Shown here: piece after piece, positions 3,745 through 60,347 of the stretch
Position numbering within the stretch: position 1 is the first letter of the stretch
Layout of the letters: every line of letters starts with the position of its first letter
Assembly (NCBI GenBank): GCA_005400705.1
Contig: GCA_005400705.1_4079.1
Source: Escherichia coli
GTDB taxonomy: Bacteria > Pseudomonadota > Gammaproteobacteria > Enterobacterales > Enterobacteriaceae
Direction: 5' to 3' (one strand)
DNA length: 64,000 nt
Translations under genes and position numbers: made by a program
The notes under the pieces: generated by a model
Seen by the model: the letters and a program-made list of their open reading frames with translations, nothing else
Told to the model about the DNA's origin: nothing
The model's database searches: none

Positions 3745-4268
3745 TGGGATGAAGTAAAAGTTTGTGATATAATTATCTTGTACAATTCTGTTGGCATGAT
3801 ATTCATGTACCTGATCCACTCGAAAACGTAGAGGGCAGTTGAGCAGTCCGACAGTGCGAACAGCAAAAGAAACCCGTTAGATGTGGGCATAGTTTGAACC
3901 CCTCACGGCAATGCGGCTGTATAAAGAACCACGTTAGGATAGCTGGTGGTTCCTTGATAGACATATAAGGATAACACCTTACGAATTATCTAAGGGAGAG
4001 TTATCAAATTTTGTACAGGAAAGTTGCGTCCAGAATTTGAGTACTCACATTAAGTATTTGATTGCATAGATACTTAATGAAGATACACTATGTTTAAAAG
4101 TGTAGACCGTCATATGAAACTGAAGTAGAGAGAAACAGGATGACCCGCTTTCGCACTCGTTATGAGTAATCTTCAATGCAATAGCTCTGATACCATCAGC
4201 GTCAAATTTCCCTCCTTGTGGGGGGGAAGAAAAATCCCTTCCTCAAATCCCGTCAATATTAAAAGTCC
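3745..4268 (+). ncRNA. candidate structured non-coding RNA (unclassified)
   Basis: About 520 nt without ORF, locally GC-richer, nested helices e.g. gataac-a-cctta-cgaattatc-taagg-gaga-gttatc and gaaccac...gtggttc. Confidence 0.25.
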
Positions 4269-4297
4269 TTGACAGTTATTAATCATTCGCGTAGAAT
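4269..4297 (+). promoter_or_regulatory. sigma70-type promoter TTGACA-17-TAGAAT
   Basis: ttgaca 4269-4274, tagaat 4292-4297. Confidence 0.5.
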
Positions 4298-4361
4298 ACG
4301 TAGTATTAGAAGCGAACAGACATCTCTTCGAGATGGATGATTAACCATTAAGGAATATCAA

Positions 4362-4571
4362 ATGAATTCAGTAATCTTTTTAGTAGTCGCTTTCTCTGTT
4401 AATTCCGGTGTACAAATTACCCCAATGAACTCAATGAACCAATGTTTTTCTGTACGTGACAGTACTTATGATCAAGTAAACCACATGTCACTTATGACAG
4501 TTAGTAAAGAAAGTATGTGGTGTTACAATAGTAATACTAACACAAAGCTTATTGTAGGACAAACTCAATGA
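4362..4571 (+). CDS. hypothetical protein
   Basis: 69 aa ORF, RBS aagga upstream, hydrophobic N-terminus. Confidence 0.45.
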   Translation: MNSVIFLVVAFSVNSGVQITPMNSMNQCFSVRDSTYDQVNHMSLMTVSKESMWCYNSNTNTKLIVGQTQ

Positions 4572-4798
4572 GTTATGGTGTTCGTTTTGAGATTCGTTCT
4601 ATTGTCATCAATGCAGAGAAACAAGTATCGTTGGATGGTGATATACGTGAAATTTATCTATCATGTATCCGTGCGAAATCTGAAGCAGATGCCTTAGTAC
4701 AAATGTATAGTTTTAACTTTTCAAATGGATTCTATTTGGTACGAGTTGTTGAAGTTAAAAAAGTAATTCTTGGTTGTTGCATAGAAGGAATAATGTAA
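4568..4798 (+). CDS. hypothetical protein
   Basis: 76 aa ORF, ATGA overlap with upstream gene. Confidence 0.45.
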   Translation: MSYGVRFEIRSIVINAEKQVSLDGDIREIYLSCIRAKSEADALVQMYSFNFSNGFYLVRVVEVKKVILGCCIEGIM

Positions 4799-5587
4799 AT
4801 GAGCACTATCGATGAACTGATTCAACGGAATTCAAAATATTACCAACCATCAGAAATTGTGGATAACATTACTAAATCTGAGTTTGGACCGAACACACGC
4901 AAACTCATTCATGTAATGTCACGTGATGGCTTTAAATGTGATTGTTGTGGTGAATCAAATGTAGTATTCACTTTACACAAGCACAGTACTAAAGAACGTT
5001 ATAAATTCAGACCTTATGTACTTAAAGGGAAACGTCTTGTACGCATGACGTTAGACCATAACGTACTGGACTGTCTTCAGGGCGGTAATGATAAAGAGAA
5101 CATGACTGCACTGTGTGAAGATTGTAACGCATTACGCCAGCATAAGTTTGCTGAATACAGTGAGTTTAAACACTGGTATCATAACGCGGATCGTTCAATC
5201 GAGCCTGACGTTAACTACTGCTTCATTGAGTACATTAAGAATGCAAAAGATACATACATTCTTAAATCAATGTCACCTATTACCGTGTTTCCTGAGAACC
5301 TATTCACTACATTAAAGAATAGTTTTATTGTAGGTGATATTGATGCATTCAAGTATTTTGACAAAGGTGCAAAACATTTTGAAATTCAATGTCTTAGTAC
5401 TGCACTATGTGAACTCATTAAAATTTACATAAAAGAGTGTTTGGGTATTGACAATGTACGTGTACCAGAGTATACTTTTTCTATTGAATTCGATTGTGAA
5501 TCAATCAAAGAGTTTGGAATTCTTTTCAATAAACAAATAGAACTTGCAATTCAAAACGAAATCAAGTACTATACTACTAACATTTAA
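4799..5587 (+). CDS. HNH-family endonuclease (homing endonuclease-like)
   Basis: 262 aa; CDCCG ... TLDHNVLDCLQGGNDKENMTALCEDCNALRQHK matches the HNH CxxC/H-N/CxxC/H pattern. Confidence 0.65.
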   Translation: MSTIDELIQRNSKYYQPSEIVDNITKSEFGPNTRKLIHVMSRDGFKCDCCGESNVVFTLHKHSTKERYKFRPYVLKGKRLVRMTLDHNVLDCLQGGNDKENMTALCEDCNALRQHKFAEYSEFKHWYHNADRSIEPDVNYCFIEYIKNAKDTYILKSMSPITVFPENLFTTLKNSFIVGDIDAFKYFDKGAKHFEIQCLSTALCELIKIYIKECLGIDNVRVPEYTFSIEFDCESIKEFGILFNKQIELAIQNEIKYYTTNI

Positions 5588-5602
5588 TCAGAGGAAATTA
5601 TC

Positions 5603-5785
5603 ATGCAAATCATCATTCTTATCGTTGGTATCATGTTAGGTGTTTATGGTCACTCATGGATGAACGAGAAGTTTCCTAATACGCGTCCTGAATATTGCAG
5701 TACTAATGTATTCCAGAATGGTGAGAAACCAAAGGAAAGTATTGGTAAAAAGCTGGACAAAGTACTTGATGTAATCAACGAATAA
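5603..5785 (+). CDS. hypothetical small protein
   Basis: 60 aa ORF, hydrophobic N-terminus. Confidence 0.45.
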   Translation: MQIIILIVGIMLGVYGHSWMNEKFPNTRPEYCSTNVFQNGEKPKESIGKKLDKVLDVINE

Positions 5786-5794
5786 GGGGAAAGT

Positions 5795-5995
5795 ATGTTT
5801 AAATCAAATTCGAATGTTGGTAAGAAGGTTCAATTACTTGAGGATGTATCCACTCTGAGTGGGATTTTCCCAAGAGGTCACATCATGACTATTATTGCCG
5901 AAACATCCCGTGGTTGGGACTTGGAAGATGCTGATGGTAATCGCATCCTTGAGGCTGGCTTCTATGGTCATCGTGAATATAAAATTATCGATTAA
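5795..5995 (+). CDS. hypothetical protein
   Basis: 66 aa ORF. Confidence 0.45.
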   Translation: MFKSNSNVGKKVQLLEDVSTLSGIFPRGHIMTIIAETSRGWDLEDADGNRILEAGFYGHREYKIID

Positions 5996-6092
5996 GGATA
6001 TAAAATGATGTTAGAGGCTATCATTGGTATTGTTAGTTTTAGTCATCTGTGTTGCTTGCTTTGGGTATATGATGATTTTTGGTGATTAATAC

Positions 6093-6120
6093 TTGACAGA
6101 AGATATCAGTACTGTATAAT
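6093..6120 (+). promoter_or_regulatory. sigma70-type promoter TTGACA-16-TATAAT
   Basis: ttgaca 6093-6098, tataat 6115-6120, AGTACTG in spacer. Confidence 0.6.
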
Positions 6121-6150
6121 GTTTATATCAAACGAAATCCACTTTAACAA

Positions 6151-6444
6151 ATGATAGGAAATATTATGTCTTTTTCTAAAGAAGAACGTGACCTTATTAA
6201 AAAAGCAATTTGGTTTTATGCTAATGAAGGGAAGTGCGATGAAGAAAAAGCACGTGAACTGTGTAATATCCTTGAGAAGAAACAAGAACTGAAAGTGTTT
6301 CGTATCCGTGATTTGGATGAAGGGGATCGTATTGTCCTAGCTGAAACAAAAGAAGAAGCAGAACAAATCTTCACTGATAAAAACGAAAATCCACATTGGA
6401 TGGAAGAAGTCTGTGATGTTAAAAAAGGTACTTATATCGATTGA
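6151..6444 (+). CDS. hypothetical protein
   Basis: 97 aa ORF; alternative start at 6166. Confidence 0.5.
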   Translation: MIGNIMSFSKEERDLIKKAIWFYANEGKCDEEKARELCNILEKKQELKVFRIRDLDEGDRIVLAETKEEAEQIFTDKNENPHWMEEVCDVKKGTYID

Positions 6445-49417: not shown

Positions 49418-49450
49418 AGATTTTATCAAGACAACTAAGAGGAAATTAAA

Positions 49451-50145: not shown

Positions 50146-50196
50146 TCAAAACATCGTTAGCGGTTGATTTAGGCCGCTTATATTGAGGATTATACC

Positions 50197-50469: not shown

Positions 50470-50474
50470 TTAAT

Positions 50475-50684: not shown

Positions 50685-50734
50685 TTTTTAAACGCGTATA
50701 ATGTTTTACATGAAGGGGAGAAATGATTCTCCCC
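50670..50734 (+). promoter_or_regulatory. PeSL-like cassette
   Basis: agtacttgcaattagtttttaaacgcgtataat, hairpin ggggagaa-atga-ttctcccc. Confidence 0.6.
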
Positions 50735-50753
50735 ACTAATTAAGGAATATGAA

Positions 50754-50900
50754 ATGAAAGCATCAAAAAAGAGTAATACCAAGAAAGCATGTTCACCTTT
50801 CGCTGGGGTATTCCCTTTACGTTTCGTTGATGAAGTGGTTTCCTACCCGCCGGGCCTTACTCCTGAGATGGTAGAAAGTTTGCGTAAATCTAAAAAATAG
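50754..50900 (+). CDS. small basic protein
   Basis: 48 aa (below cutoff), RBS aagga. Confidence 0.4.
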   Translation: MKASKKSNTKKACSPFAGVFPLRFVDEVVSYPPGLTPEMVESLRKSKK

Positions 50901-50963
50901 TACTTGCAATTAGTTTTCAGTACTGTATAATGTTTTACATGAAGGGGAGAAATGATTCTCCCC
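50899..50963 (+). promoter_or_regulatory. PeSL-like cassette
   Basis: agtacttgcaattagttttcagtactgtataat, hairpin ggggagaa-atga-ttctcccc. Confidence 0.6.
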
Positions 50964-50981
50964 AATAACAGGAGAAACAAA

Positions 50982-51134
50982 ATGAAACAATACAACGCTC
51001 GGTTTGATGTTACTATCGGTAACGGCAAAGGTCAATTCTCTTTCAGTACTCGCAAAAGTTATACAGAAAACTTCCTGCGTAATTGTGCACTGACCGCCGC
51101 TCAAATTAAACATTACTTTCAGGCTAAAAAATGA
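50982..51134 (+). CDS. small protein
   Basis: 50 aa from ATG 50982, RBS aggaga. Confidence 0.45.
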   Translation: MKQYNARFDVTIGNGKGQFSFSTRKSYTENFLRNCALTAAQIKHYFQAKK

Positions 51135-51220
51135 AATCATTAGCTTACTATAGTTCGGCCCTGGTCGGTACATTGATCGCGGCATTGTTAGTAACCTATC
51201 TATTCTTTATGGTGATTTAA
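51131..51220 (+). CDS. small hydrophobic peptide
   Basis: 29 aa, ATGA overlap, single TM helix. Confidence 0.25.
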   Translation: MKSLAYYSSALVGTLIAALLVTYLFFMVI

Positions 51221-51364
51221 ATGAATCCAACAGGTTTAAATTATAAAAGTTGTTCGGCGTTTACGAAAGCAAATAAAGCGAATGCACGTAAAGCGAAAGT
51301 ACAGGAATACATCAAGCAAGGCATGACGCGAAAGGCGGCGATTCTAAAAGCTAAAAATAAATGA
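51221..51364 (+). CDS. small basic protein
   Basis: 47 aa, start abuts upstream stop. Confidence 0.35.
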   Translation: MNPTGLNYKSCSAFTKANKANARKAKVQEYIKQGMTRKAAILKAKNK

Positions 51365-51371
51365 AAAAAGT

Positions 51372-51402
51372 GGTTGACTCCGGTCAGCCATTTTGCTATT
51401 AT
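51372..51402 (+). terminator. fused terminator-promoter (GGTTGAC-TCCG-GTCAGCC)
   Basis: Hairpin 51372-51389, TTTT, tattat 51397-51402. Confidence 0.6.
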
Positions 51403-51488
51403 ATATTCATTGAGAGATAGCTCACTAGCCCACAGGGTGCATAAGTGTATCTATTATATAAGTATTGAGTACTGAAAACTATTTTTAA

Positions 51489-51554
51489 AAAGTACTTGCA
51501 AACTATCTCAATTGGCGTATAATGTTTTACATCGCAAGGGGAAACGGTTTCCCC
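51489..51554 (+). promoter_or_regulatory. PeSL-like cassette
   Basis: aaagtacttgcaaactatctcaattggcgtataat, palindromic stem ggggaaac-g-gtttcccc. Confidence 0.6.
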
Positions 51555-51574
51555 TGGTAATAAGGAAACGAATC

Positions 51575-51916
51575 ATGACTATCTCAATTGCTCAATCTAA
51601 CTTTGAAAACGAAATCATCGCCCAGGCACTGCGTTTAAATGATGGTCGGGCCGAAATTAATTACGGTTTCAATTCAGGCGGTTGCGAAAAATATCAGTAC
51701 TTTGTAACGGCTGATGGCGGTGTCCTGGGGATCAATACAGTTATTGTAAACATTCAGAAAATTAATTTCAATGATCCAGAAGATAGCCAGTTTTACATCA
51801 CGGGCGTGAACGTGAACTATGAGGATGATTATCTAACTGATGATCACACTGGCGAGAAGTTAGAAAGTGCATACGGTGAAGATGATTATCAGTCCGGTCC
51901 AGAAGATTTTGAATAA
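51575..51916 (+). CDS. hypothetical acidic protein
   Basis: 113 aa from ATG 51575, RBS aagga. Confidence 0.55.
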   Translation: MTISIAQSNFENEIIAQALRLNDGRAEINYGFNSGGCEKYQYFVTADGGVLGINTVIVNIQKINFNDPEDSQFYITGVNVNYEDDYLTDDHTGEKLESAYGEDDYQSGPEDFE

Positions 51917-51930
51917 TATTAAAAAATAGT

Positions 51931-51990
51931 TTGACAATAGATTATAGTACTGTATAATAAGTTACATCAAGGGGAGAAATGATTCTCCCC
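51931..51990 (+). promoter_or_regulatory. PeSL-like cassette (TTGACA-16-TATAAT)
   Basis: ttgaca 51931-51936, tataat 51953-51958, hairpin ggggagaaatgattctcccc 51971-51990. Confidence 0.6.
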
Positions 51991-52010
51991 ACTAACAAAG
52001 AGAAAACAAA

Positions 52011-52223
52011 ATGGCTAATATCTGCACTGTACTGAAAAATGCAAAACAAGTTTTATTTTCTGATCATGAAAATTTCAACAAGGATATTACGGGCGTTCGG
52101 AATATCAAAGATGTAAAAAGTGTTATGGGTATCTATTGCAATATGAAACGTGTTGGTACGTTCGGCGACAAAGTACTATACCAGGCAGGGGATTATAACT
52201 TTACATTAACCATTATCAATTAA
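52011..52223 (+). CDS. hypothetical protein
   Basis: 70 aa. Confidence 0.55.
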   Translation: MANICTVLKNAKQVLFSDHENFNKDITGVRNIKDVKSVMGIYCNMKRVGTFGDKVLYQAGDYNFTLTIIN

Positions 52224-52241
52224 AATATATTACCAGTACTA

Positions 52242-52270
52242 TTAACAATGATTGATAGTACTGGCATAAT
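52242..52270 (+). promoter_or_regulatory. promoter TTAACA-17-CATAAT (AGTACTGG class)
   Basis: gatagtactggcataat. Confidence 0.45.
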
Positions 52271-52314
52271 AACTTTTATCAACAGTAGTTAACTTAACAA
52301 AAGAGAGAAACAAA

Positions 52315-52458
52315 ATGATCGCACTAGATTCATTCATCGACGCAGTACTGGCAAAAACTGGCGAGGATCTGACCGCAGAACAATACGCGATGATCGAACA
52401 ATGTCAGCAAAACGGTAAATCGGTGAAAGATACTGTTAAGATTATCCGCAAGATGTAA
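52315..52458 (+). CDS. small protein
   Basis: 47 aa (below cutoff), RBS agagag. Confidence 0.4.
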   Translation: MIALDSFIDAVLAKTGEDLTAEQYAMIEQCQQNGKSVKDTVKIIRKM

Positions 52459-52563
52459 GATTATAGCCCACTGGTTAACGCTGGTGGGCTATAATTCATT
52501 ACCCTATACAATGCCAGTACTCAACCGTTTATCTCGTTAGAATGCGTTACAGGACGTTTACCA

Positions 52564-52761
52564 ATGATTAGCATGAAATCAGTACAAAAACAAATAGAAA
52601 CATTATCAAAAATTAAACGTAAACAGTACTCGTTAGAATATACAATCAATGGTAACTATCATCTAATGAAAGAGAATAATTTTATCGTCATTGATGAATC
52701 ATTGCAAGTTATTAGTATAGTACTGAAAGCATTAATCAATGACAGAAAAAAATTAAAATAA
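52564..52761 (+). CDS. hypothetical protein
   Basis: 65 aa. Confidence 0.45.
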   Translation: MISMKSVQKQIETLSKIKRKQYSLEYTINGNYHLMKENNFIVIDESLQVISIVLKALINDRKKLK

Positions 52762-52765
52762 TCTA

Positions 52766-52794
52766 TTGACAATATCCTCCAGTACTGGCATAAT
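52766..52794 (+). promoter_or_regulatory. promoter TTGACA-17-CATAAT (AGTACTGG class)
   Basis: ttgaca 52766-52771, agtactggcataat. Confidence 0.5.
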
Positions 52795-52856
52795 ACTTAC
52801 ATCAAGACGAGAACGTCACCAACCCATAGGGTGCACAAATGTAACTATATAATATC

Positions 52857-52929
52857 GATCAATAAATGATCAAAAAAGTACTGGATCAATTTAGCATAAG
52901 GCGTATAATTCTGATCAATTCTTGATCAA
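52857..52929. repeat. cluster of five (T)GATCAA repeats (GATC sites)
   Basis: gatcaa at 52857, 52868, 52884, 52913, 52924, flanking a tataat at 52903-52908. Confidence 0.5.
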
Positions 52930-53090
52930 AGGCAATATACGCAGTTGAATTTATATAGACAGTACAAAGGCGTTACTATCCGTGGTAATGCTGGTGGATA
53001 TGTAGTATCATATGGTTTGAATAAGATAAACACTAGTAGTATTATTGTAGCATTACAGTACTATAGTATTTTTATAATGAGGTTAAAATA

Positions 53091-53348
53091 ATGGCAGTAG
53101 GATACGCGAAAGACGGGGCCGAACAAGACGAGATTCATGCAGTGATTCAGGCCGCCGTTAACCACGCTAGAAAGCAAATTAACGCACAAAGAGAATCACT
53201 GGTACATTGCCTCGACTGCGGCGATAAAATTCCTGAGAATCGACGCCAGGCCGTTATAGGGTGCATGTATTGTATTACTTGCCAGGAGGATCATGATAGT
53301 ACTTTTAAAAGAGATCCGCGTAATTGTTGGCATAGATCTATGAGATAA
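53091..53348 (+). CDS. TraR/DksA-family C4 zinc-finger protein
   Basis: 85 aa; CLDCGDKIPENRRQAVIGCMYCITCQ gives CxxC-x17-CxxC as in TraR/DksA. Confidence 0.65.
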   Translation: MAVGYAKDGAEQDEIHAVIQAAVNHARKQINAQRESLVHCLDCGDKIPENRRQAVIGCMYCITCQEDHDSTFKRDPRNCWHRSMR

Positions 53349-53354
53349 AAAGTA

Positions 53355-53383
53355 ATTGACAGTACTGAAAGATAGTGTATAAT
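53355..53383 (+). promoter_or_regulatory. sigma70-type promoter TTGACA-17-TATAAT
   Basis: ttgaca 53355-53360, tataat 53378-53383. Confidence 0.55.
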
Positions 53384-53412
53384 GTTTTATATCTTAACTG
53401 AGGATAGAAATC

Positions 53413-53769
53413 ATGGGAATACAACATATCACGCGTACTACTGACAATGGCGAGATCACTGGTTATCAAGTACAGGGCAAAGTAGCACAATTGCAGTACT
53501 GGTTTGTTAAACGTGGAATCATTGCACCGGATCTTGATTATGACCGTGTAGCGTTTATTGATTCTCTTTATGTTGATCCTGATAGTCGGGGCAATGGTGA
53601 AGGTAACGAATTAATGAATGCCTTTATCGATGCCGCCGATGATTCAGATTGTATCATCTTAGAATGCGATACGGGAGAAGATAACGCCTTTAATCTTAAA
53701 GAATGGTACGAAGGTTTCGGATTCGAGGTATTGATAGATAGTGAATATCCTATCATGATTTTATCATAG
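53413..53769 (+). CDS. hypothetical protein, possibly GNAT-like acetyltransferase
   Basis: 118 aa; IDSLYVDPDSRGNGEGNELMNAFIDAA loosely resembles GNAT motif A. Confidence 0.5.
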   Translation: MGIQHITRTTDNGEITGYQVQGKVAQLQYWFVKRGIIAPDLDYDRVAFIDSLYVDPDSRGNGEGNELMNAFIDAADDSDCIILECDTGEDNAFNLKEWYEGFGFEVLIDSEYPIMILS

Positions 53770-53830
53770 TACTTGCATTTAGTTTTCAGTACTGTTATAG
53801 TACTTGCATCAAGGGGAAACATCTTCCCCT
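53768..53830 (+). promoter_or_regulatory. PeSL-like cassette (degenerate -10)
   Basis: agtacttgcatttagttttcagtactgttatag, hairpin aggggaa-acatc-ttcccct. Confidence 0.45.
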
Positions 53831-53847
53831 ACTAAGAGGAAATAAAA

Positions 53848-54036
53848 ATGGAAAACTTATCAAGTATTTTAGTACAAGATGATTTCGGTAATCCTGGAAG
53901 TGCTATCATTGTTCGGGGTAATAAAGCAACGTTTGTTATTGCTGGTGGACCCGTACAGCGTAGCATTAAAAATAATGCTGTTACCATTAATAATGTACGC
54001 TATCGCTTAGATAAAGAATTGATTCATAAACTGTAA
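53848..54036 (+). CDS. hypothetical protein
   Basis: 62 aa, RBS agagga. Confidence 0.5.
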   Translation: MENLSSILVQDDFGNPGSAIIVRGNKATFVIAGGPVQRSIKNNAVTINNVRYRLDKELIHKL

Positions 54037-54044
54037 AAAAGTAC

Positions 54045-54104
54045 TGGACAATAGATTATAGTACTGTATAATAAGTTACATGAAGGGGAGAAATGATTCT
54101 CCCC
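54045..54104 (+). promoter_or_regulatory. PeSL-like cassette
   Basis: tggaca-16-tataat (54067-54072), hairpin ggggagaaatgattctcccc. Confidence 0.55.
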
Positions 54105-54122
54105 AGTACTGAGGAAAGAAAA

Positions 54123-54335
54123 ATGCAAGGTCAACTAATCGTTCGTAAATGGTCTGATACTAACGCTAAACCGTGGGATGTACAATACATCGGCCCCAAT
54201 GGTGAATCCAGATATCAACCAGGTGTAACGCATAGTACTGAGCAATTCGCCGCCGCTCATCGTGAACGTCTGTTACAATCAATGCAGCAAGGTTCCGGTG
54301 AAAAATTCATTCAGGATCATTGGCTGAAAGATTAA
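54123..54335 (+). CDS. hypothetical protein
   Basis: 70 aa from ATG 54123, RBS gagga. Confidence 0.55.
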   Translation: MQGQLIVRKWSDTNAKPWDVQYIGPNGESRYQPGVTHSTEQFAAAHRERLLQSMQQGSGEKFIQDHWLKD

Positions 54336-54336
54336 A

Positions 54337-54400
54337 AAGTACTTGCACAGTACTGAATAAAGTGTATAATGTTTTATATCGAGAGGGGAATAGTTCCCCT
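54337..54400 (+). promoter_or_regulatory. PeSL-like cassette
   Basis: aaagtacttgcacagtactgaataaagtgtataat, hairpin gaggggaa-tag-ttcccctc. Confidence 0.6.
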
Positions 54401-54421
54401 CCTAACAAAAAGGAAAGTATA

Positions 54422-54595
54422 ATGATCCAAGTAGAATTATCAGTACTGAAAGATCTATTTTATCGGTTAGGTACTAATGGCGAGTATCCTAAAAGTGATA
54501 CCGCAAAACTTTTTGTATCACTCGACTTATGGCAACGCGAACAATTAGTAATGTCGTGGCGTAAAGGTAAAGCAGATCGCGAGGTGAAAGCATGA
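54422..54595 (+). CDS. small protein
   Basis: 57 aa from ATG 54422, RBS aaggaaag. Confidence 0.45.
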   Translation: MIQVELSVLKDLFYRLGTNGEYPKSDTAKLFVSLDLWQREQLVMSWRKGKADREVKA

Positions 54596-54741
54596 AAGAA
54601 TTCTTATTTGAAGTAGTGTTTCAAGGTGTCGGTAATAACCAACTGATTCGATCAAGTGGTTATAATGTTAACCAGGCATGGAATAACATTAAACAAATGT
54701 ACCCTAACGCTATCACCTATCGCAACCCGAAAGAAGTTTAA
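54592..54741 (+). CDS. small protein
   Basis: 49 aa, ATGA overlap. Confidence 0.35.
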   Translation: MKEFLFEVVFQGVGNNQLIRSSGYNVNQAWNNIKQMYPNAITYRNPKEV

Positions 54742-54755
54742 AAATAATTGAAAAA

Positions 54756-54789
54756 GGGATTGACTCCGGTCAGTCCCTTTGCTATTATA
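54756..54789 (+). terminator. fused terminator-promoter (GGGATTGAC-TCCG-GTCAGTCCC)
   Basis: Hairpin 54756-54777, TTT, tattat 54784-54789. Confidence 0.6.
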
Positions 54790-54873
54790 TACGCATAGAA
54801 ACAAATCAGCCCACCGGGTGCATAAATGTATCTATTGTTTGCTGGTGGCTAGTACTGAAAACTATTTTTAAAA

Positions 54874-54906
54874 AGTACTTGCATTGTACTTAGAATCAAG
54901 TATAAT
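54874..54906 (+). promoter_or_regulatory. PeSL-type promoter driving the structured element
   Basis: aaagtacttgcattgtacttagaatcaagtataat. Confidence 0.55.
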
Positions 54907-54990
54907 GTTTTACATCAGGACGGGGAACGAAATAAGTAACTTCCCGTTAAGTAGCCCAGGAGTAAGGCACACGAAAAACTCCCCTGATAA
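54907..54990 (+). ncRNA. candidate structured small RNA, copy B
   Basis: Sequence identical to 45066-45150. Confidence 0.35.
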
Positions 54991-54996
54991 AATAGT

Positions 54997-55024
54997 TTGA
55001 CAATAGAAAGTAAACGAGTATAAT
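54997..55024 (+). promoter_or_regulatory. sigma70-type promoter TTGACA-16-TATAAT
   Basis: ttgaca 54997-55002, tataat 55019-55024. Confidence 0.55.
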
Positions 55025-55057
55025 ACTTACATCAACCACTGATAAGGAAACATTAAA

Positions 55058-55333
55058 ATGCGGATTCTACTGACAGCTAACGAAATCGAACAAGTACTGA
55101 CTACTAACCTGGAACAATGGAAACGTGATGCAGATATCCAGGCGGTTCAATGGCTTAACGATAAGTTAACGCCGGATGACTTAAGCAAGATTGTAGATCC
55201 TCAATTCTACGAAGATATCCACGACACCGCGTTAAGCGTCGAGGATGTACTTGATAAGCACTACATTGATACTGATTTACAGGTTTACGGTCGTAAAAAC
55301 TTTATCACTATCCACGACATTTACAATAATTAA
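55058..55333 (+). CDS. hypothetical acidic protein
   Basis: 91 aa, RBS aaggaaa. Confidence 0.55.
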   Translation: MRILLTANEIEQVLTTNLEQWKRDADIQAVQWLNDKLTPDDLSKIVDPQFYEDIHDTALSVEDVLDKHYIDTDLQVYGRKNFITIHDIYNN

Positions 55334-55336
55334 GTA

Positions 55337-55398
55337 TTGACAAAGTATCTTAGTACTGTATAATAGTTTACATCAAGTGAGGGGAAACGGTTCCCCTC
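55337..55398 (+). promoter_or_regulatory. PeSL-like cassette
   Basis: ttgaca-16-tataat (55359-55364), hairpin gaggggaaacggttcccctc. Confidence 0.6.
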
Positions 55399-55419
55399 CT
55401 AACAAAGAGAGAAATAAAA

Positions 55420-55743
55420 ATGGCTATGATCCTTACCCAGAAAGTAGAACTGAAAATTGTAACCTCCTTTGACATTAAAGTTAATCGCTGGACTGATCGG
55501 AACGGCAATACTTACCACTCTTGCTACGTGTCTGCATTGATTGGTGATCGTTGGGAAGACCTGGGACACGAAACTTTTACATACGGTTACGGTACGCAAG
55601 GCGAATACACGGGCTTGGAGATCATTAAAGAAACCGTTATAGGTTTCAACCCGAAAGAAAAAGTTATTCACCGCATCGAAAAAGAGATTAACAAAGAAAT
55701 AACAGTTCGCTACTACGATGTAAAACGTAAGAAAGACATGTAA
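55420..55743 (+). CDS. hypothetical protein (paralog of 49451 product)
   Basis: 107 aa, RBS agagag. Confidence 0.55.
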   Translation: MAMILTQKVELKIVTSFDIKVNRWTDRNGNTYHSCYVSALIGDRWEDLGHETFTYGYGTQGEYTGLEIIKETVIGFNPKEKVIHRIEKEINKEITVRYYDVKRKKDM

Positions 55744-55758
55744 TAGAATCCATTTAAA

Positions 55759-55794
55759 GTACTATTTGACATTACACAGATAGTACTTTATAAT
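55759..55794 (+). promoter_or_regulatory. promoter with palindrome AGTACTAT...ATAGTACT
   Basis: ttgaca 55766-55771 inside the palindrome, tataat 55789-55794. Confidence 0.5.
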
Positions 55795-55838
55795 AGACTC
55801 TAGCTTGTAGTACTAACTTAACTAATAGGATGTATACC

Positions 55839-56234
55839 ATGATTACTAAATTCTACGCTACCCGTGAAGCTGCCCGTATTGTTGCACGCGAGGAAGGAGC
55901 AGCATTTAAAGACATGGGCAAAGATGCACCGAAAGGCCAACGCTGGGCCGTACAGTTCAAAGAGATCTCTGATATTGTGAATTCACCGGAGCCAGTACTG
56001 ACAGCAGCAGAACAGAAGAAAGCTGATGAACTGTCAGCAGTTCTTAACGCTCAAGATGACTTTATCGCGGGTTCTGATATTAAAGTTTCCGTAAATTCGA
56101 ATGCATGGACTCACGCGGATCATCTGGCTAACTTGAAGCGTCCAAGTGTACTGATTCGCAACCAACGAGAGATCCGCCACGACCGCAAGGGAAACAGTGT
56201 TACTGTATTCAGTAAACGCCGCCAGGTTATCTAA
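55839..56234 (+). CDS. hypothetical protein (paralog of 44207 product)
   Basis: 131 aa from ATG 55839, RBS agga. Confidence 0.55.
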   Translation: MITKFYATREAARIVAREEGAAFKDMGKDAPKGQRWAVQFKEISDIVNSPEPVLTAAEQKKADELSAVLNAQDDFIAGSDIKVSVNSNAWTHADHLANLKRPSVLIRNQREIRHDRKGNSVTVFSKRRQVI

Positions 56235-56255
56235 TAACTTGCAGTACTAACAACA

Positions 56256-56290
56256 CGGCGGGTTCAGTTCCCGCCTTTTTTTTATAGGAT
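56256..56290 (+). terminator. intrinsic terminator
   Basis: ggcggg-ttcagtt-cccgcc then T9. Confidence 0.7.
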
Positions 56291-56298
56291 AAACTAAA

Positions 56299-56553
56299 AT
56301 GATGAAGGTACAACTATCTAAAGATAATATCTTGCGGGTACACTATAAAGCACCACAGAGAATCATCACAAAGGCCGTACAGCTTGCTAATGAGTTTATT
56401 AATGGTAGTCTATTACCCAGGAAGTTAAGCAACGGGAAACTACGTGTTATCGATGTAGACACTAACAATAGAATAGTAATTGAGAGTACTGGAAAAATTA
56501 ATCTATATGAACACCAACAATACAATAAAAAAATAAAACTAATATCACGTTGA
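56299..56553 (+). CDS. hypothetical protein
   Basis: 84 aa. Confidence 0.5.
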   Translation: MMKVQLSKDNILRVHYKAPQRIITKAVQLANEFINGSLLPRKLSNGKLRVIDVDTNNRIVIESTGKINLYEHQQYNKKIKLISR

Positions 56554-56578
56554 CAGTACTCAATTGTTTTAGTATTAT
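56550..56578 (+). promoter_or_regulatory. promoter TTGACA-17-TATTAT
   Basis: Near-identical to the 56826 promoter and leader. Confidence 0.5.
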
Positions 56579-56606
56579 GTACACATACCAACACGGGAGA
56601 AACAAA

Positions 56607-56825
56607 ATGAAATTATCTAAAATCGAAAAGAAAACTATTGATGAAGCAGTTAAGCACGGTTATACCTTTCGTAATGATTCACATTTTACCAATTTTCAAC
56701 AAGGGTATCGTACTATTAAAAAACTAATTGACAAAGGTTTATTAGTTGAAGTCAATAACGGCAATGGCATTGAGTATCAACCAACACAGGACGCATTTTA
56801 TTTTAAGAAATATAATATTATCTAA
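56607..56825 (+). CDS. hypothetical protein
   Basis: 72 aa from ATG 56607, RBS gggaga. Confidence 0.5.
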   Translation: MKLSKIEKKTIDEAVKHGYTFRNDSHFTNFQQGYRTIKKLIDKGLLVEVNNGNGIEYQPTQDAFYFKKYNII

Positions 56826-56854
56826 TTGACAGTACTCAAATGTTTTAGTACTAT
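56826..56854 (+). promoter_or_regulatory. promoter TTGACA-17-TACTAT
   Basis: Duplicate of the 56550 cassette. Confidence 0.5.
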
Positions 56855-56883
56855 ATGTACATACCAACACGGGGAAAAACAAA

Positions 56884-57126
56884 ATGATTACTTTAGAAAA
56901 ACGTATCAAAGAAACTACATCGCTGGTGGAACTGTTAACAGTACTGAAATGTAAAACAACACCATTCAGCACGCCGGACTTTATTAATATGGTTGATGTT
57001 AATGGTCGCTATCGCATCACGGTCGAACAAGGAGCGGCGAAAGTATTCAGTACTAAAAACACCAAGGAAGTGATCCACGCCGTTAATGTTAAAAAAGTAG
57101 TTGCCATTGATAGTAAAGTACTGTAA
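56884..57126 (+). CDS. hypothetical protein
   Basis: 80 aa. Confidence 0.5.
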   Translation: MITLEKRIKETTSLVELLTVLKCKTTPFSTPDFINMVDVNGRYRITVEQGAAKVFSTKNTKEVIHAVNVKKVVAIDSKVL

Positions 57127-57157
57127 TATAGTTTCATTAACTCAAGGAGAACATGCA

Positions 57158-57742
57158 ATGCGTAATTATACTAAATTCATCCGTACACTGTCAGAAATGG
57201 AAACCAACAAAGAGATCCTTTCAGCTTGTCGGTTAGCTGGCCTGGAGATCATCGGTGCTGGTTCTTCCCGTATAGTATTCGCTTTAAATGATCGGTTAGT
57301 GATTAAGGTCGCGAATTGTGATGCGGGTGTAGAACAAAATGAAACTGAATGTAAGGTATGGAATTTTTTAGACTATGACCGCCCTCAGTTGAAACAGTAC
57401 TTTGCAAAGGTGCATATGCATTTATGCGATCCTGATAATATGTTTATCGTTATGGATCGGTTGAGTACTGCAAGCAAAGGCAGTGTGAAGCACGTTAACG
57501 CGTGCAATGAATTAAAGTACAATATTAAACGTAATGCCATTGAACGCCAGCACCGCTTTGCTGATGCACTACAACACGTTGATGATACCTTATCAACACT
57601 AACTATAAGAGATATCAGAAAACAGAATATCGGCCAGGATCGCAACGGCTTGATTAAAGTACTTGATTACGGTTTAACCCGCAATATCTGGAATCAGTAC
57701 TATAAAAAGCGTGATGTAAAAGCCGTAACTATAACACGATAA
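57158..57742 (+). CDS. protein kinase-like protein
   Basis: 194 aa from ATG 57158 (RBS aaggaga); Gly-rich IGAGSSRIVF, Lys in VIKVA, RDIRKQNIG (HRD-like), VLDYGL (DFG-like). Confidence 0.5.
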   Translation: MRNYTKFIRTLSEMETNKEILSACRLAGLEIIGAGSSRIVFALNDRLVIKVANCDAGVEQNETECKVWNFLDYDRPQLKQYFAKVHMHLCDPDNMFIVMDRLSTASKGSVKHVNACNELKYNIKRNAIERQHRFADALQHVDDTLSTLTIRDIRKQNIGQDRNGLIKVLDYGLTRNIWNQYYKKRDVKAVTITR

Positions 57743-57756
57743 AAAAGATTAAAAAA

Positions 57757-57790
57757 GGGATTGACTCCGGTCAGTCCCTTTGCTATTATA
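57757..57790 (+). terminator. fused terminator-promoter (GGGATTGAC-TCCG-GTCAGTCCC)
   Basis: Hairpin 57757-57778, TTT, tattat 57785-57790. Confidence 0.6.
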
Positions 57791-57871
57791 TATGCATGAA
57801 AACAATCTAACCCACCGGGTGCATAAATGTATCTATTATATAAGTATTCAGTACTGAAAACTATTTTTAAA

Positions 57872-57937
57872 AAGTACTTGCATACTATCTCAATTCGCGT
57901 ATAATGTTTTATATCGAGAGGGGGAAATGGTTCTCCC
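57872..57937 (+). promoter_or_regulatory. PeSL-like cassette
   Basis: aaagtacttgcatactatctcaattcgcgtataat, hairpin ggggaa-atgg-ttctcc. Confidence 0.6.
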
Positions 57938-57959
57938 TGGTACATTAAGGAATAAAATC

Positions 57960-58367
57960 ATGACTACTACCAATCAAGCTCGGAACATCACCAACGATAA
58001 AAATCATGCTGCAATGGTCGCTGGATACATTGAAGCTATGCAATTCAGTACTGTATACAATGAGAACGGCGATTACCTGGAAGATTATGAATTATCAGAG
58101 CAAGCCCATCAAGCGGCAGTGATTGCATGTTCACGTTTCCTTGCTGTACATGGTGAAGATATGGAAACAGTACAAAAACACCATAATCCTGATTATACTT
58201 ATAATCATGCAGGTCATGATCTCTTTCTTACTCGCGAAGGTCACGGCACTGGCTTTTGGGATCGTGATATCGGTCACTATGACGATGTATTCACTAAGTA
58301 CTGCGAAGAAATCAACGTTTGCGATCCCTATGTAGGCGATGATAATCTAATCTATATGGGCGAATAA
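57960..58367 (+). CDS. hypothetical His-rich protein
   Basis: 135 aa from ATG 57960, RBS aaggaa. Confidence 0.55.
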   Translation: MTTTNQARNITNDKNHAAMVAGYIEAMQFSTVYNENGDYLEDYELSEQAHQAAVIACSRFLAVHGEDMETVQKHHNPDYTYNHAGHDLFLTREGHGTGFWDRDIGHYDDVFTKYCEEINVCDPYVGDDNLIYMGE

Positions 58368-58373
58368 AAGTAT

Positions 58374-58432
58374 TTGACAAAGTATATCAGTACTGTATAA
58401 TAGTTTACATCAAGGGGAGAATAGTTCTCCCC
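58374..58432 (+). promoter_or_regulatory. PeSL-like cassette
   Basis: ttgaca-16-tataat (58396-58401), hairpin ggggagaa-tag-ttctcccc. Confidence 0.6.
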
Positions 58433-58456
58433 ACACCAATAAAAGGAAACAAAATT

Positions 58457-58729
58457 ATGTCCAGCTACTCCGCTACTATGATCATTAAAGATATGAACGG
58501 TAATCCTACTTCTGCTGGTGGATCATTTGGAAATATTAACTTAGATGGGCGGTTATCCATGCAATCAGCCATTGATGCAGCGAAAGAAGTTTTTAAGAAT
58601 GAATGTACTGTAAGTAAGCTGGATTATATGGGATTCGCTATCGAGAAAACTAATCGTTTTGTGAACTACAAAAATCCACTGATGATCGATACTAACCTGA
58701 AAGCAAACGAAGTGGAATACTTATTATGA
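58457..58729 (+). CDS. hypothetical protein
   Basis: 90 aa, RBS aaaggaaa. Confidence 0.55.
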   Translation: MSSYSATMIIKDMNGNPTSAGGSFGNINLDGRLSMQSAIDAAKEVFKNECTVSKLDYMGFAIEKTNRFVNYKNPLMIDTNLKANEVEYLL

Positions 58730-58917
58730 CAGTTGAAGAAGTTAAAAAAGTACTGGCAGTACTACGCTATCATAATCATTGTAAGGTGAAGAATGATCCT
58801 GATTATGTTGATTCATCCCTGGAGGAAGACACCTTAAACGCGATAAGCCATATGCAAACATTAGCAAAGCGTATGACCGAAAAGAATAGGCCGGACTATA
58901 TCGGAAATAAAATTTAA
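58726..58917 (+). CDS. hypothetical protein
   Basis: 63 aa, ATGA overlap. Confidence 0.45.
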   Translation: MTVEEVKKVLAVLRYHNHCKVKNDPDYVDSSLEEDTLNAISHMQTLAKRMTEKNRPDYIGNKI

Positions 58918-58986
58918 AAAGTACTTGCATTGTAGTTAGATTAACGTATAATGTTTTATATCGAGAGGGGGAAATGGTTTCCCCTC
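58918..58986 (+). promoter_or_regulatory. PeSL-like cassette
   Basis: aaagtacttgcattgtagttagattaacgtataat, hairpin gagggggaaa-tgg-tttcccctc. Confidence 0.6.
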
Positions 58987-59004
58987 AAGTCCAGGAGATA
59001 CACC

Positions 59005-59268
59005 ATGAACGCTATTGAAATCACTATCAATGCACACGTATACGACAACGTAGTACTGCAAACTACTATGACCGCTAACGATACCAGTACTTTGCGGAAT
59101 ACTGTTATTAGTGCTGTATGTGCCGCTATCGGTGATGTCGCCCTGGAAAATGCAAAACACGTAAACGATGGTTTCACTATGTGCAAACGTGATAACGCAA
59201 AACATATCATCGTAGAAGGTTACGGCGGTGTAGAATATAATGTTTATATGAAAAAAGTACTTGCATAG
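59005..59268 (+). CDS. hypothetical protein
   Basis: 87 aa from ATG 59005, RBS aggaga. Confidence 0.55.
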   Translation: MNAIEITINAHVYDNVVLQTTMTANDTSTLRNTVISAVCAAIGDVALENAKHVNDGFTMCKRDNAKHIIVEGYGGVEYNVYMKKVLA

Positions 59269-59318
59269 TACTGAATAAAGCGTATAATGTTTTGCATAGG
59301 GGGAGATATCCTCCCCCA
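59265..59318 (+). promoter_or_regulatory. PeSL-like cassette
   Basis: aaagtacttgcatagtactgaataaagcgtataat, hairpin gggggag-atatc-ctccccc. Confidence 0.6.
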
Positions 59319-59335
59319 CTAAAAGGAGTATTAAA

Positions 59336-59560
59336 ATGGCTAACTTTGATGAACTGATGCGGGAAGTAGCTAACCTGGCAGAAGAGAAGAAATCATTCGA
59401 TTCTATCTATAACACCGCTCACCGTGATTCAGTACTGGCATGTAACCAGGATCAAAAAGATGAACTAATCGCCACATATCATGAAGCATGGAAGTACTAC
59501 CGACAATGGGAGAAAGAAGAAAGCGAGTCTACCATCGAAGGTATCAATAATCTAATCTAA
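59336..59560 (+). CDS. hypothetical protein
   Basis: 74 aa, RBS aaggag. Confidence 0.55.
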   Translation: MANFDELMREVANLAEEKKSFDSIYNTAHRDSVLACNQDQKDELIATYHEAWKYYRQWEKEESESTIEGINNLI

Positions 59561-59579
59561 AAGTTTTATTTCAGTACTA

Positions 59580-59608
59580 TTGACATAGCTTGATAGTACT
59601 GATATGAT
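59580..59608 (+). promoter_or_regulatory. promoter TTGACA-17-TATGAT (AGTACTG class)
   Basis: ttgaca 59580-59585. Confidence 0.45.
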
Positions 59609-59635
59609 AACTTTACTAACTAAAGGGGAAACATA

Positions 59636-59893
59636 ATGGAACAGTTCACACAATATCGGGTAAATCCAATTGCTACAGCCTACGTAGAAGACCATAAAAC
59701 GTTACCAGTACTGCAACCAGTTAAAGGCCGTATCTATCGTGGCCTTGCCTGGGATACGGCCCAGGATGGATATAAAACCGTCGCCGTGGGGATGTATTGC
59801 GGGAATGGTGAATGGTTTGATCCTAACAATCCGATTGCACTTGACAGTACTGAAAAAATGAAATGGTCCGACTACATCGAAGATATTTCATAA
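59636..59893 (+). CDS. hypothetical protein
   Basis: 85 aa, RBS aagggga. Confidence 0.55.
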   Translation: MEQFTQYRVNPIATAYVEDHKTLPVLQPVKGRIYRGLAWDTAQDGYKTVAVGMYCGNGEWFDPNNPIALDSTEKMKWSDYIEDIS

Positions 59894-59900
59894 AAACTAT

Positions 59901-59961
59901 TTGACAGTACTAACCAGTAATGTATAATGTTTTACATAGAGCGGGGGAATAGTTCTCCCGC
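59901..59961 (+). promoter_or_regulatory. PeSL-like cassette
   Basis: ttgaca-16-tataat (59923-59928), hairpin gcgggggaa-tag-ttctcccgc. Confidence 0.6.
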
Positions 59962-59983
59962 CAATAGTTTGGAGTAAAACATT

Positions 59984-60184
59984 ATGTCTATCGCTATCGC
60001 CCTGGTTGAAGTACTGAAAGAAGCTAAAGCCAACCTTATCGATGTACAGATTAAGGAATTGCAAAACGGCTTAATCGGCTGTACTTGTACCGCTGGTGGA
60101 GCGGCAGACTATCGAGAACACGAATCACTCGAATCACTGGTTCGGTATCTTACCATGATCGTTGATGATTGGAGAATCATCTAA
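59984..60184 (+). CDS. hypothetical protein
   Basis: 66 aa, RBS ggag. Confidence 0.5.
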   Translation: MSIAIALVEVLKEAKANLIDVQIKELQNGLIGCTCTAGGAADYREHESLESLVRYLTMIVDDWRII

Positions 60185-60201
60185 CAAAAAAGAATAAAAA
60201 A

Positions 60202-60234
60202 GGGATTGACTCAGGTCAGTCCCTTTGCTATTAT
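60202..60234 (+). terminator. fused terminator-promoter (GGGATTGAC-TCAG-GTCAGTCCC)
   Basis: Hairpin 60202-60223, TTT, tattat 60229-60234. Confidence 0.6.
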
Positions 60235-60347
60235 ATACGCATAGACAAAAACTAGCCCACAGGGTGCATAAGTGTATCCAAAATATATAGTTAATAACGG
60301 TGAGTAACTATCTGCTGGTGGAGTGAAAACTATTAATAAAAAAAGTA

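Follow-up and report, generated by a model that had tools for sequence, protein, structure and literature searches.

Chi octamers concentrated in the long direct terminal repeat of an Asteriusvirus jumbo phage are candidate sites of RecBCD action

The principle that a phage can turn the host RecBCD enzyme to its own use by carrying Chi octamers is known from phage P1 and from lambdoid phages of the LLS class. P1 has 50 Chi sites near its terminal redundancy, and both its cyclization and its yield need RecBCD and RecA (10.1101/2021.07.08.451572). Chi has also been reported to occur preferentially in open reading frames (ORFs) in E. coli but not in P1 (Subramaniam & Smith, 10.1101/2021.07.08.451572). 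LLS-class lambdoids carry about 20 co-oriented Chi sites toward one end, have no recombination genes and grow better with RecBCD (Genome Res 2025, PMC12315714). Here we describe a dense cluster of the same octamer, GCTGGTGG, in contig GCA_005400705.1_4079.1 of an Escherichia coli assembly, a stretch of 64 kb that is referred to below in its entirety as the window. The window derives from a jumbo phage of the genus Asteriusvirus, and the cluster coincides with the region that corresponds to the long direct terminal repeat (DTR) of its relatives. Chi-clustered DTRs in jumbo phages appear to be new, and literature searches, from which most subscription journals were excluded, returned no report of Chi in Asteriusvirus, RaK2-like or jumbo-phage repeats.

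An exact search of both strands recovers 14 copies of GCTGGTGG in the window, 12 on the plus strand and two on the minus strand (Table 1). The G+C content of the window is ~35%, and the expected Chi count is therefore well under one per strand; Markov models of order 0-4 for the whole window give 0.2-0.8 copies per strand, and 100 dinucleotide-preserving shuffles gave 0.59 copies in total with a maximum of 2. A preliminary description of this DNA had listed 11 plus-strand and two minus-strand copies against about one expected per strand. That list was right except that it omitted the plus-strand copy at 56922 and placed the minus-strand copy at 42266 one position too low, at 42265, and its expectation was generous; with the composition-matched expectation that it called for, the count (14 vs 0.59) stands far above chance. 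What did not hold is the impression that the octamer is spread from 3942 to 60321, as 12 of the 14 copies are concentrated between 41690 and 61683 (P=4e-5). For these 20 kb, Markov models of the same orders predict 0.11-0.43 copies on the plus strand and 0.05-0.13 on the minus strand, where 10 and two are observed. The earlier remark that the copies are mostly intergenic is borne out both by the plus-strand copies of the whole window (7 of 12) and by the cluster, in which eight of 12 copies are non-coding in DNA that is only ~32% non-coding (P=0.014), with the intergenic excess falling to P=0.064 once two close pairs are each counted as one.

Megablast comparisons identify the window as part of an Asteriusvirus (121Q/PBECO4/G17-like) E. 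coli jumbo phage, a group with genomes of 350-385 kb. The anticipated enterobacterial host agrees with this assignment, as 164 of the 201 matching records are Escherichia phages. The best records cover ~47% of the window at 93-96% identity, and less than 50% of either half; the phage is therefore a distinct, mosaic member of Asteriusvirus that is unrepresented in the phage collection searched. All of its closest relatives are phages of E. coli or Salmonella, which suggests that the host of this exact phage is one whose RecBCD recognises the octamer.

Long terminal repeats have been described for several of these phages. The closest relative, fEgEco12, has a DTR of 20,993 bp that was determined by PhageTerm and confirmed with restriction digests (PMC13070987), G17 has redundancies of ~20 kb (PMC6563267) and the DTR of Sharanji is 20,668 bp (PMC11895373). 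Window positions 41690-61683 are collinear with positions 1-20993 of the fEgEco12 DTR, with ~94% identity at each of the two boundaries: the initial 600 bp of that repeat align from 41690, the terminal 600 bp reach to 61682, and the left unique DNA of fEgEco12 starts at window position 61684. Additionally, the records of G17 and vB_Ec-M-J open at the position homologous to 41690, and the first 21,525 bp of the latter (OQ718158.1), which are annotated as 'Direct Terminal Repeats', match the Chi-rich half of the window. Homology to three records with determined ends thus places the probable DTR boundaries at the edges of the Chi cluster. The boundary alignments imply an order of right-end unique DNA (up to 41689), one DTR copy and left-end unique DNA (from 61684), which has the appearance of a collapsed assembly. 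The DTR contains ~49 small plus-strand genes of early type, each with its own near-consensus sigma-70 promoter.

The relation between Chi and the repeat is seen at the scale of a whole genome in fEgEco12, whose complete sequence was assembled from its record and has two identical DTR copies. Its DTR carries 10 plus-strand and two minus-strand Chi (1 per 1.75 kb) versus 14 plus-strand and 10 minus-strand Chi in 332.7 kb of unique DNA (1 per 13.9 kb), which is a 7.9-fold difference in density (P=6e-7). Relative to Markov expectations of order 3-5, enrichment is just ~2-fold in the unique DNA but 25- to 90-fold on the plus strand of the DTR. The DTR of the window, with 1 Chi per 1.67 kb compared with 1 per 4.6 kb in E. 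coli, has 2.7 times the density of the chromosome despite a G+C content of 38%. The sites are well conserved within the genus; across five relatives (fEgEco12, vB_Ec-M-J, 121Q, G17 and Salmonella phage SD-15_S21) the octamer is intact in 53 of the 58 site-by-genome cells that align, and the flanks are 87-99% identical. Conservation within Asteriusvirus alone is nevertheless weak evidence, because the genomes are related and their sites are not independent observations.

Phages of other genera in the RaK2-like clade are more informative in this respect. The 19,736 bp repeat of Klebsiella phage fENko-Kae01, determined by PhageTerm, contains 12 plus-strand and two minus-strand Chi versus one on each strand in the next 25 kb, and the 22,455 bp repeat of Pectobacterium phage CBB (Mimasvirus) contains seven plus-strand and two minus-strand Chi (~0.5 expected) versus none and two, respectively, in the preceding 27.5 kb. 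The Chi flanks of fENko-Kae01 cannot be aligned with those of the window. A DTR-restricted, plus-biased Chi enrichment is consequently present in three genera on enterobacterial hosts, and the repeats of this clade have not simply inherited it as a sequence feature. In CBB, most RpoD-like promoters have been placed outside the repeat (PMC5259590), which suggests that Chi tracks the repeat and not promoter density. The 39,080 bp repeat of the related Pseudomonas phage PA5oct (MK797984.1, 1-39080) has no E. coli Chi, as is also the case for the 11 kb adjacent to it, and contains the proposed Pseudomonas octamer GCTGGCGC once, without enrichment. This change of host thus provides only half of a positive control, in that the E. 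coli Chi is absent, in agreement with the different host, but the Pseudomonas octamer is not enriched in its place. The most over-represented words of the PA5oct repeat are TCTTATTTG(C) and GCATTTGC, which are probably promoter or operator motifs of that phage. A general rule that a long DTR means a Chi cluster was rejected on account of coliphage T5, which has only two Chi in its 10.2 kb repeat and none in the next 40 kb.

Several observations indicate that it is the exact octamer that has been accumulated in the DTR. Exact Chi is observed 10 times on the plus strand versus 0.35 expected, while all 24 one-mismatch variants together are observed three times versus 6.6 expected, and no consensus emerges from the 12 nt that flank the sites on each side. 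When the octamers of the DTR are ranked under an order-3 model the top positions are taken by words of a promoter module, namely CAGTACTG (41 copies), GTATAATGTTTTACATCA and AGTACTTGCA, and GCTGGTGG is the next independent word (P=6e-12). There are at least 28 near-identical sigma-70-type promoter modules in the DTR, roughly one per small gene, and ~3 of them are near a Chi. Where modules and Chi do meet, their arrangement differs: after the copy at 54739-54836 there is 'gtttGCTGGTGGc' in place of the 'atataagtatt' of its paralogues at 51496 and 57878, and for the copy at 60185-60282 the Chi lies 31 nt further on, in other surroundings. The position of Chi relative to promoters and terminators is variable, with many sites lying between a terminator and a promoter. 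Three candidate explanations were rejected on these grounds, namely Chi as part of one long repeat (the flanks are unrelated), Chi as a fixed part of the sigma-70 promoter module (~3 of at least 28 modules only, with paralogues that differ exactly at Chi) and an artefact of composition or codon usage (Markov models fitted to the DTR predict too few copies, and one-mismatch variants are not enriched). The placement in cassettes or modules that had been proposed earlier is thus loosely right, in that Chi occupies variable junctions of promoter modules without being a constituent of them. As repeats, a degenerate binding site and a codon by-product all fail, the unit under selection appears to be the exact host Chi octamer.

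These results bear directly on the possibility that the octamers have accrued without any selection on Chi, through a G-rich coding strand, preferred GCT and GGT codons, a higher G+C content of the DTR and duplication of modules. Three of the four coding sites in the DTR do lie in GCT-GGT-GG (Ala-Gly-Gly) phase, the DTR has 38.5% G+C versus 35.5% in unique DNA, the background in unique DNA is ~2-fold over Markov expectation and follows the coding strand, and the DTR is full of repeated modules. However, only 0.1-0.4 copies are predicted by Markov models that were fitted to the DTR, eight of 12 sites are non-coding and the one-mismatch neighbours are not enriched; furthermore, the unrelated flanks show that no site was copied from another, and the enrichment is found again in three genera whose flanks cannot be aligned. 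A by-product of composition or duplication is largely refuted by these data, and we regard it as highly improbable.

The promoter modules have several features of their own. The module (42055-60797; families D1-D3) has the form AAAAAGTAC-TTGCAa-N16-TATAAT-GTTTTACATC, followed by a short GC hairpin and a ribosome-binding site. The most over-represented octamer of the DTR, CAGTACTG, is an 8 bp palindrome with 41 copies versus 4.75 expected and 74 copies in the window; in fEgEco12 there are 40 in the DTR versus 181 in 333 kb of unique DNA. Examples occur at 42211-42218 and 42237-42244 and in promoter spacers such as 46518-46525, often just ahead of the -10 hexamer (cagtactgTATAAT) or before the -35 element. 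A regulator of the phage or of the host may use this palindrome as an operator-like site. A hairpin with a 12 bp stem, AAAGGGATTGACTCCGGTCAGTCCCTTT followed by GCTATTATAT, is found four times (51331-51410, 54717-54796, 57718-57797 and 60163-60242) as part of an intergenic module of ~100-130 nt (families D4, D5 and D7); with TTGACT in its stem and TATTAT in its tail, it may be terminator and promoter at once. Finally, a 192 bp direct repeat of 90% identity (45010-45201 and 54851-55042) contains two tandem promoters ~118 bp apart, the first of which has a short leader that ends at the second, a TTGACA promoter, and this repeat could encode a small early RNA.

Table 1. Chi sites and associated features of the window. 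Positions are those of the 64 kb stretch; DTR, direct terminal repeat; ORF, open reading frame.
Feature	Position	Strand	Remarks
Chi, intergenic, outside DTR	3942..3949	+	after sigma-factor-like gene (2745-3710)
Chi in ORF, outside DTR	20280..20287	+	Ala-Gly-Gly phase; background as at ~1 per 14 kb in unique DNA
DTR equivalent, ~19,994 bp	41690..61683	.	by homology to the fEgEco12 DTR
Back-to-back double-Chi palindrome, CCACCAGC-ACAA-GCTGGTGG	42266..42285	.	minus-strand Chi at 42266, plus-strand Chi at 42278; 576-588 bp from left DTR end
Chi, intergenic	48694..48701	-	~7.0 kb from left end; between terminator (48648-48669) and promoter (-35 at 48829)
Chi, intergenic	48756..48763	+	same spacer as 48694; kept in 5/5 relatives
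Chi, intergenic	52480..52487	+	over loop and 3' arm of hairpin TATAGCCCAC...GTGGGCTATA
Chi, intergenic	52990..52997	+	least conserved site
Chi in 62 aa ORF	53941..53948	+	phase 0 (Ala-Gly-Gly)
Chi, intergenic	54841..54848	+	variable junction of repeated module (families D4, D7)
Chi in 80 aa ORF	56922..56929	+	phase 2 (Leu-Val)
Chi in 90 aa ORF	58514..58521	+	phase 0 (Ala-Gly-Gly)
Chi in 66 aa ORF	60092..60099	+	phase 0 (Ala-Gly-Gly); absent in 121Q
Chi, intergenic	60314..60321	+	1362 bp from right DTR end; 31 nt past third D7 copy

The first pair of sites in the DTR is arranged as a palindrome that provides one Chi for each direction of RecBCD travel. The sequence of both arms is unchanged between the window, fEgEco12, 121Q and Klebsiella phage fENko-Kae01, while the DNA around the palindrome barely aligns; its loop varies among these phages (ACAA, TTGT or TTAA) and there are no compensatory stem changes between genera. 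The palindrome is predicted to fold with -21.7 kcal/mol (z=-3.2), and in the G17 record (MK327931.1, 586-605) it is annotated as 'putative terminator, -16.50, determined by ARNOLD'. As a rho-independent terminator it was rejected, since it has no T-run, is followed by ATTCCCTCT and was missed by a terminator scan; because the hairpin lacks a following T-run, the label in the G17 record looks like a misannotation. These features are the ones that could be cited for GCTGGTGG being a regulatory or structural element of the phage with no relation to RecBCD, such as a protein-binding site, part of a terminator hairpin or a packaging signal. Such an element would be in keeping with the copies that lie in or beside hairpins (42266/42278 and 52480), with the stable fold and terminator label of the palindrome and with the many sites between a terminator and a promoter. 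It would not account for a motif that is exactly the host Chi, tolerates no variants, has no conserved flanks and is variably placed, with four sites inside ORFs and with a palindrome lacking both a T-run and compensatory stem changes. The motif is, moreover, absent from the homologous repeat of PA5oct, a Pseudomonas phage. We therefore think it quite improbable that the octamers are such an element.

The remaining sites differ in their conservation and context. The minus-strand Chi at 48694 is kept in fEgEco12, vB_Ec-M-J and SD-15_S21 and lost in 121Q and G17. At the site beginning at 52990 there is GCTGATGG in vB_Ec-M-J and GCTGGGGA in 121Q, and the region is unaligned in G17 and SD-15_S21. 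The site at 60314 is the first Chi that would be met by RecBCD entering the right genome end, and its flanks are unlike those of 54841. The 12 nt upstream flank of the Chi at 52480, ccactggttaac, also occurs at one fENko-Kae01 site; ccactggttaacGCTGGTGG together with Chi is found at 52468-52499 in the window, 10.8 kb from the left end, and at ~19342-19361 in fENko-Kae01, ~0.4 kb from the right end of its repeat. This hairpin-plus-Chi with its shared flank may be a small mobile or anciently conserved element. Outside the DTR, fEgEco12 has a plus-strand Chi at 307290, between a sigma-factor gene that ends at 307048 and the next gene, which starts at 307710; from this gene context it may be the homologue of the site at 3942 of the window.

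Several further features of the window surround the cluster. The first ~1.7 kb of the DTR (41690-43368) has no convincing gene and holds a strong promoter (42055-42082) as well as the double-Chi palindrome. A hairpin with a 14 bp stem at 42211-42244 is built from two copies of CAGTACTG. A packaging or terminase recognition site may sit within 41690-43368. Outside the DTR (61751 onward and 37430-41416) the genes are tightly packed and overlapping and have no promoter modules. A minus-strand array of eight tandem paralogous genes (27679-37332; 369-418 aa) is accompanied by a local reversal of GC skew, and relatives annotate these paralogues as RCC1-like 'chromosome condensation regulator / DNA condensation' proteins. 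There are ~15 such RCC1-like genes in fEgEco12, where an array (333825-347288) holds six of the 10 minus-strand Chi of the unique DNA; the array of the window has zero Chi. ARAGORN found no tRNA genes in the window, relatives having ~7 tRNAs elsewhere, and a tRNA-related explanation of the Chi cluster was dropped on that basis.

The orientation of the sites can be related to the ends of the phage chromosome. Chi is recognised by RecBCD only on approach from its 3' side, and a plus-strand Chi is read from right to left (PMC12315714). The ten plus-strand Chi of the DTR thereby face the right terminus, at 1.36, 1.58, 3.16, 4.75, 6.8, 7.7, 8.7, 9.2, 12.9 and 19.4 kb in, and the two minus-strand Chi are turned toward the left terminus and lie 0.58 and 7.0 kb from it. 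Each genome end, as placed by homology, has at least one correctly oriented Chi within 1.4 kb. RecBCD recognises Chi with an efficiency of 30-40% per site, at which 0.6-2.8% of the enzymes entering from the right would cross the repeat unchanged versus 36-49% of those entering from the left. This asymmetry leads to the prediction that RecBCD has access chiefly to the right end, which would either enter the cell first or stay free during packaging. The strand bias that had been noted earlier is real when judged against an even division (10:2, P=0.019) but not when judged against strand composition, which by itself predicts a ratio of ~0.73:0.27 (P=0.33); likewise, the ratios in the three genera (10:2, 12:2 and 7:2) are significant against 50:50 and not against the ~0.73 expected from a G-rich plus strand.

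A polarity of this kind could also arise if replication forks cross the repeat from left to right, with plus-strand Chi correctly oriented for RecBCD acting at a collapsed fork. In the E. coli chromosome Chi is co-oriented with replication as a rule, and in all three phage genera the plus bias is co-oriented with all of the DTR genes. Fork repair would not, however, be limited to a terminal repeat, and the 333 kb of unique DNA in fEgEco12, in which most genes are also on the plus strand, has only 14 plus-strand and 10 minus-strand Chi at ~2-fold enrichment. We consider fork repair an unlikely cause of the pattern.

The explanation that we favor, and that we think is probable without being secure, is that the octamers are functional Chi sites selected in the DTR, where they change RecBCD from a degrading enzyme into one that loads RecA. 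That Chi is enriched, that this enrichment is confined to the DTR and specific for the exact octamer, that it recurs across genera and how the sites are oriented can all be read directly from the genomes. How RecBCD acts at these sites, what recombination results and which end matters most are steps that we infer from them. The virion chromosome would be linear with a repeat at both ends, and host RecBCD would load on a free end of the phage DNA. A Chi within the repeat would then switch the enzyme from degradation to RecA loading, so that degradation would halt before the unique genes are reached. The resulting RecA-coated 3' tail would consist of repeat sequence and could invade the other copy of the repeat. 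Invasion on the same molecule would yield a circle, and invasion of another molecule would give rise to a concatemer or would prime recombination-dependent replication. In the fEgEco12 study, circularisation by recombination between the repeats is assumed, with Chi and RecBCD unmentioned (PMC13070987); the papers on G17 (PMC6563267) and Sharanji (PMC11895373) are likewise silent on Chi and host RecBCD. The earlier proposal that co-oriented Chi sites, through RecBCD, serve the protection or recombination of linear phage DNA is thus supported at the level of sequence, by the coincidence of cluster and DTR, the restriction to the exact octamer, the recurrence in two other genera on enterobacterial hosts and the absence of the enrichment from a Pseudomonas relative. 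A scan of the 20 largest DTR proteins against PHROGs found no Gam, Abc2, gp5.9 or end-protection family among them, which is weak evidence in the same direction; their matches are mostly to families of unknown function, along with a DksA-like zinc finger and a GNAT acetyltransferase.

The same molecular event could serve a different end. Products of RecBCD feed Cas1-Cas2, Chi limits spacer acquisition and the first-injected end of a phage is a hotspot for it, so that Chi sites which attenuate RecBCD at the phage ends would leave fewer fragments and fewer acquired spacers, and thereby evade CRISPR and other immunity fed by nucleases. The location of the cluster exactly at the DNA ends is what this would require, and evasion is compatible with the recombination that we propose. 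On the other hand, it leaves unexplained why Chi is confined to the repeat and not to the first few kb, as well as why there are ~10 sites over 19 kb, and two homologous repeats are an obvious substrate for recombination. Immunity evasion as the reason for the cluster therefore seems doubtful to us.

A number of points weigh against a function of the DTR octamers in RecBCD-mediated recombination. Literature searches found no report of RecBCD dependence for any Asteriusvirus, and the fEgEco12 record annotates RecA/UvsX-like and UvsY-like (recombination/ssDNA-binding) proteins, an SbcC-like nuclease subunit and a recombination endonuclease subunit of the SbcCD/gp46-47-like type, and an endonuclease VII. 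The DTR is also promoter-rich and the most intergenic region, so that 'DTR' and 'early region' are confounded in Asteriusvirus; this confounding is smaller in CBB with most of its RpoD-like promoters outside the repeat (PMC5259590). The DTR of the window is placed by homology and is present as a single copy between both unique regions, and the unique DNA covered for fENko-Kae01 and CBB amounts to 25-27 kb only. There are only two correctly oriented sites for the left end, which would make the proposed protection very asymmetric, and the plus bias, besides not being significant relative to strand composition, coincides with the direction of all DTR genes. Nor is the strategy general, because T5 has two Chi in its DTR and PA5oct has no enrichment of the Pseudomonas octamer.

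A more far-reaching version of the RecBCD explanation, which we put forward only tentatively, is that RaK2-like jumbo phages of Enterobacterales depend on this host factor, and that their 20 kb repeats are dedicated RecBCD-Chi recombination substrates, through which the genome becomes circular or concatemeric and its first round of replication is primed. Host mutants in recB or recC, or in Chi recognition, would in that event resist infection, and the 10:2 polarity together with the double-Chi palindrome would report the first-entering end (predicted to be the right one) and define a minimal protected terminus. More generally, if the DTR octamers act as Chi, a recently recognised strategy in which RecBCD is recruited and not inhibited, known from temperate P1 and small lambdoids, would extend to virulent jumbo phages that are candidates for phage therapy, the unexplained and unusually long (~20 kb) repeats of this clade would gain a mechanistic role, and a route to host resistance via recBCD or recA would be predicted. 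Chi polarity would then also be an indicator, obtainable from sequence alone, of the direction of DNA entry or packaging, and Chi density could help to place the DTR in Asteriusvirus records that were deposited collapsed or arbitrarily opened.

Comparison with the described systems shows both shared and distinct features. P1 and its relatives (P7 and D6; also Adv Genet 2022) are similar to the phage of the window in having Chi at a higher density than E. coli, concentrated in terminal-repeat DNA and with no preference for ORFs, and in the recombination between repeats that is proposed to follow injection. However, P1 is temperate and is packaged by headful from pac, with a redundancy of 5-10 kb that is permuted over ~20-40 kb and with Chi on both strands (31 of 50 on the top strand), whereas the phage of the window is a virulent jumbo phage of 350-385 kb with a fixed, exact DTR of ~20 kb, a 10:2 bias and a terminal double-Chi palindrome. 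The dependence on RecBCD has been demonstrated in P1, while for the phage of the window it is a proposal drawn from its DNA. The LLS-class ('no Rec module, high Chi') lambdoids, which include phages of several enterobacterial hosts, are similar in having ~1 Chi per 1.9 kb, clustered toward one end; 20 of their 23 are in the orientation readable from that end, to which the 10:2 ratio of the window, not significant against strand composition, may correspond. They differ in having cos ends, genomes of ~40-58 kb and no recombination genes of their own, whereas the relatives of the phage of the window are annotated with RecA/UvsX-, UvsY- and gp46/47-like proteins and the Chi of the window are clustered within a repeat carried by both ends. 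Because its relatives encode a recombination module, the phage of the window is not a member of the LLS class, but it may work similarly.

The remaining systems are more distant. The lambda chi+ mutants (red gam) share an orientation-dependent RecBCD-RecA recombination from a free phage end and are the source of the orientation rule, but theirs are individual sites created by mutation in a laboratory phage whose natural genome has no Chi and which blocks RecBCD by Gam. T5 is likewise a virulent coliphage with a long exact DTR (10.2 kb, its first-step-transfer DNA), small pre-early genes and strong host-type promoters; neither of its two DTR Chi, however, is oriented so as to be recognised by enzyme coming from the left end, the first to enter, and T5 evidently deals with its ends differently. 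The E. coli chromosome uses the same octamer with an orientation bias relative to the direction of DNA processing, but there Chi is found genome-wide, mostly in ORFs and tied to replication, whereas in the phage of the window it is local, mostly intergenic and tied to the ends.

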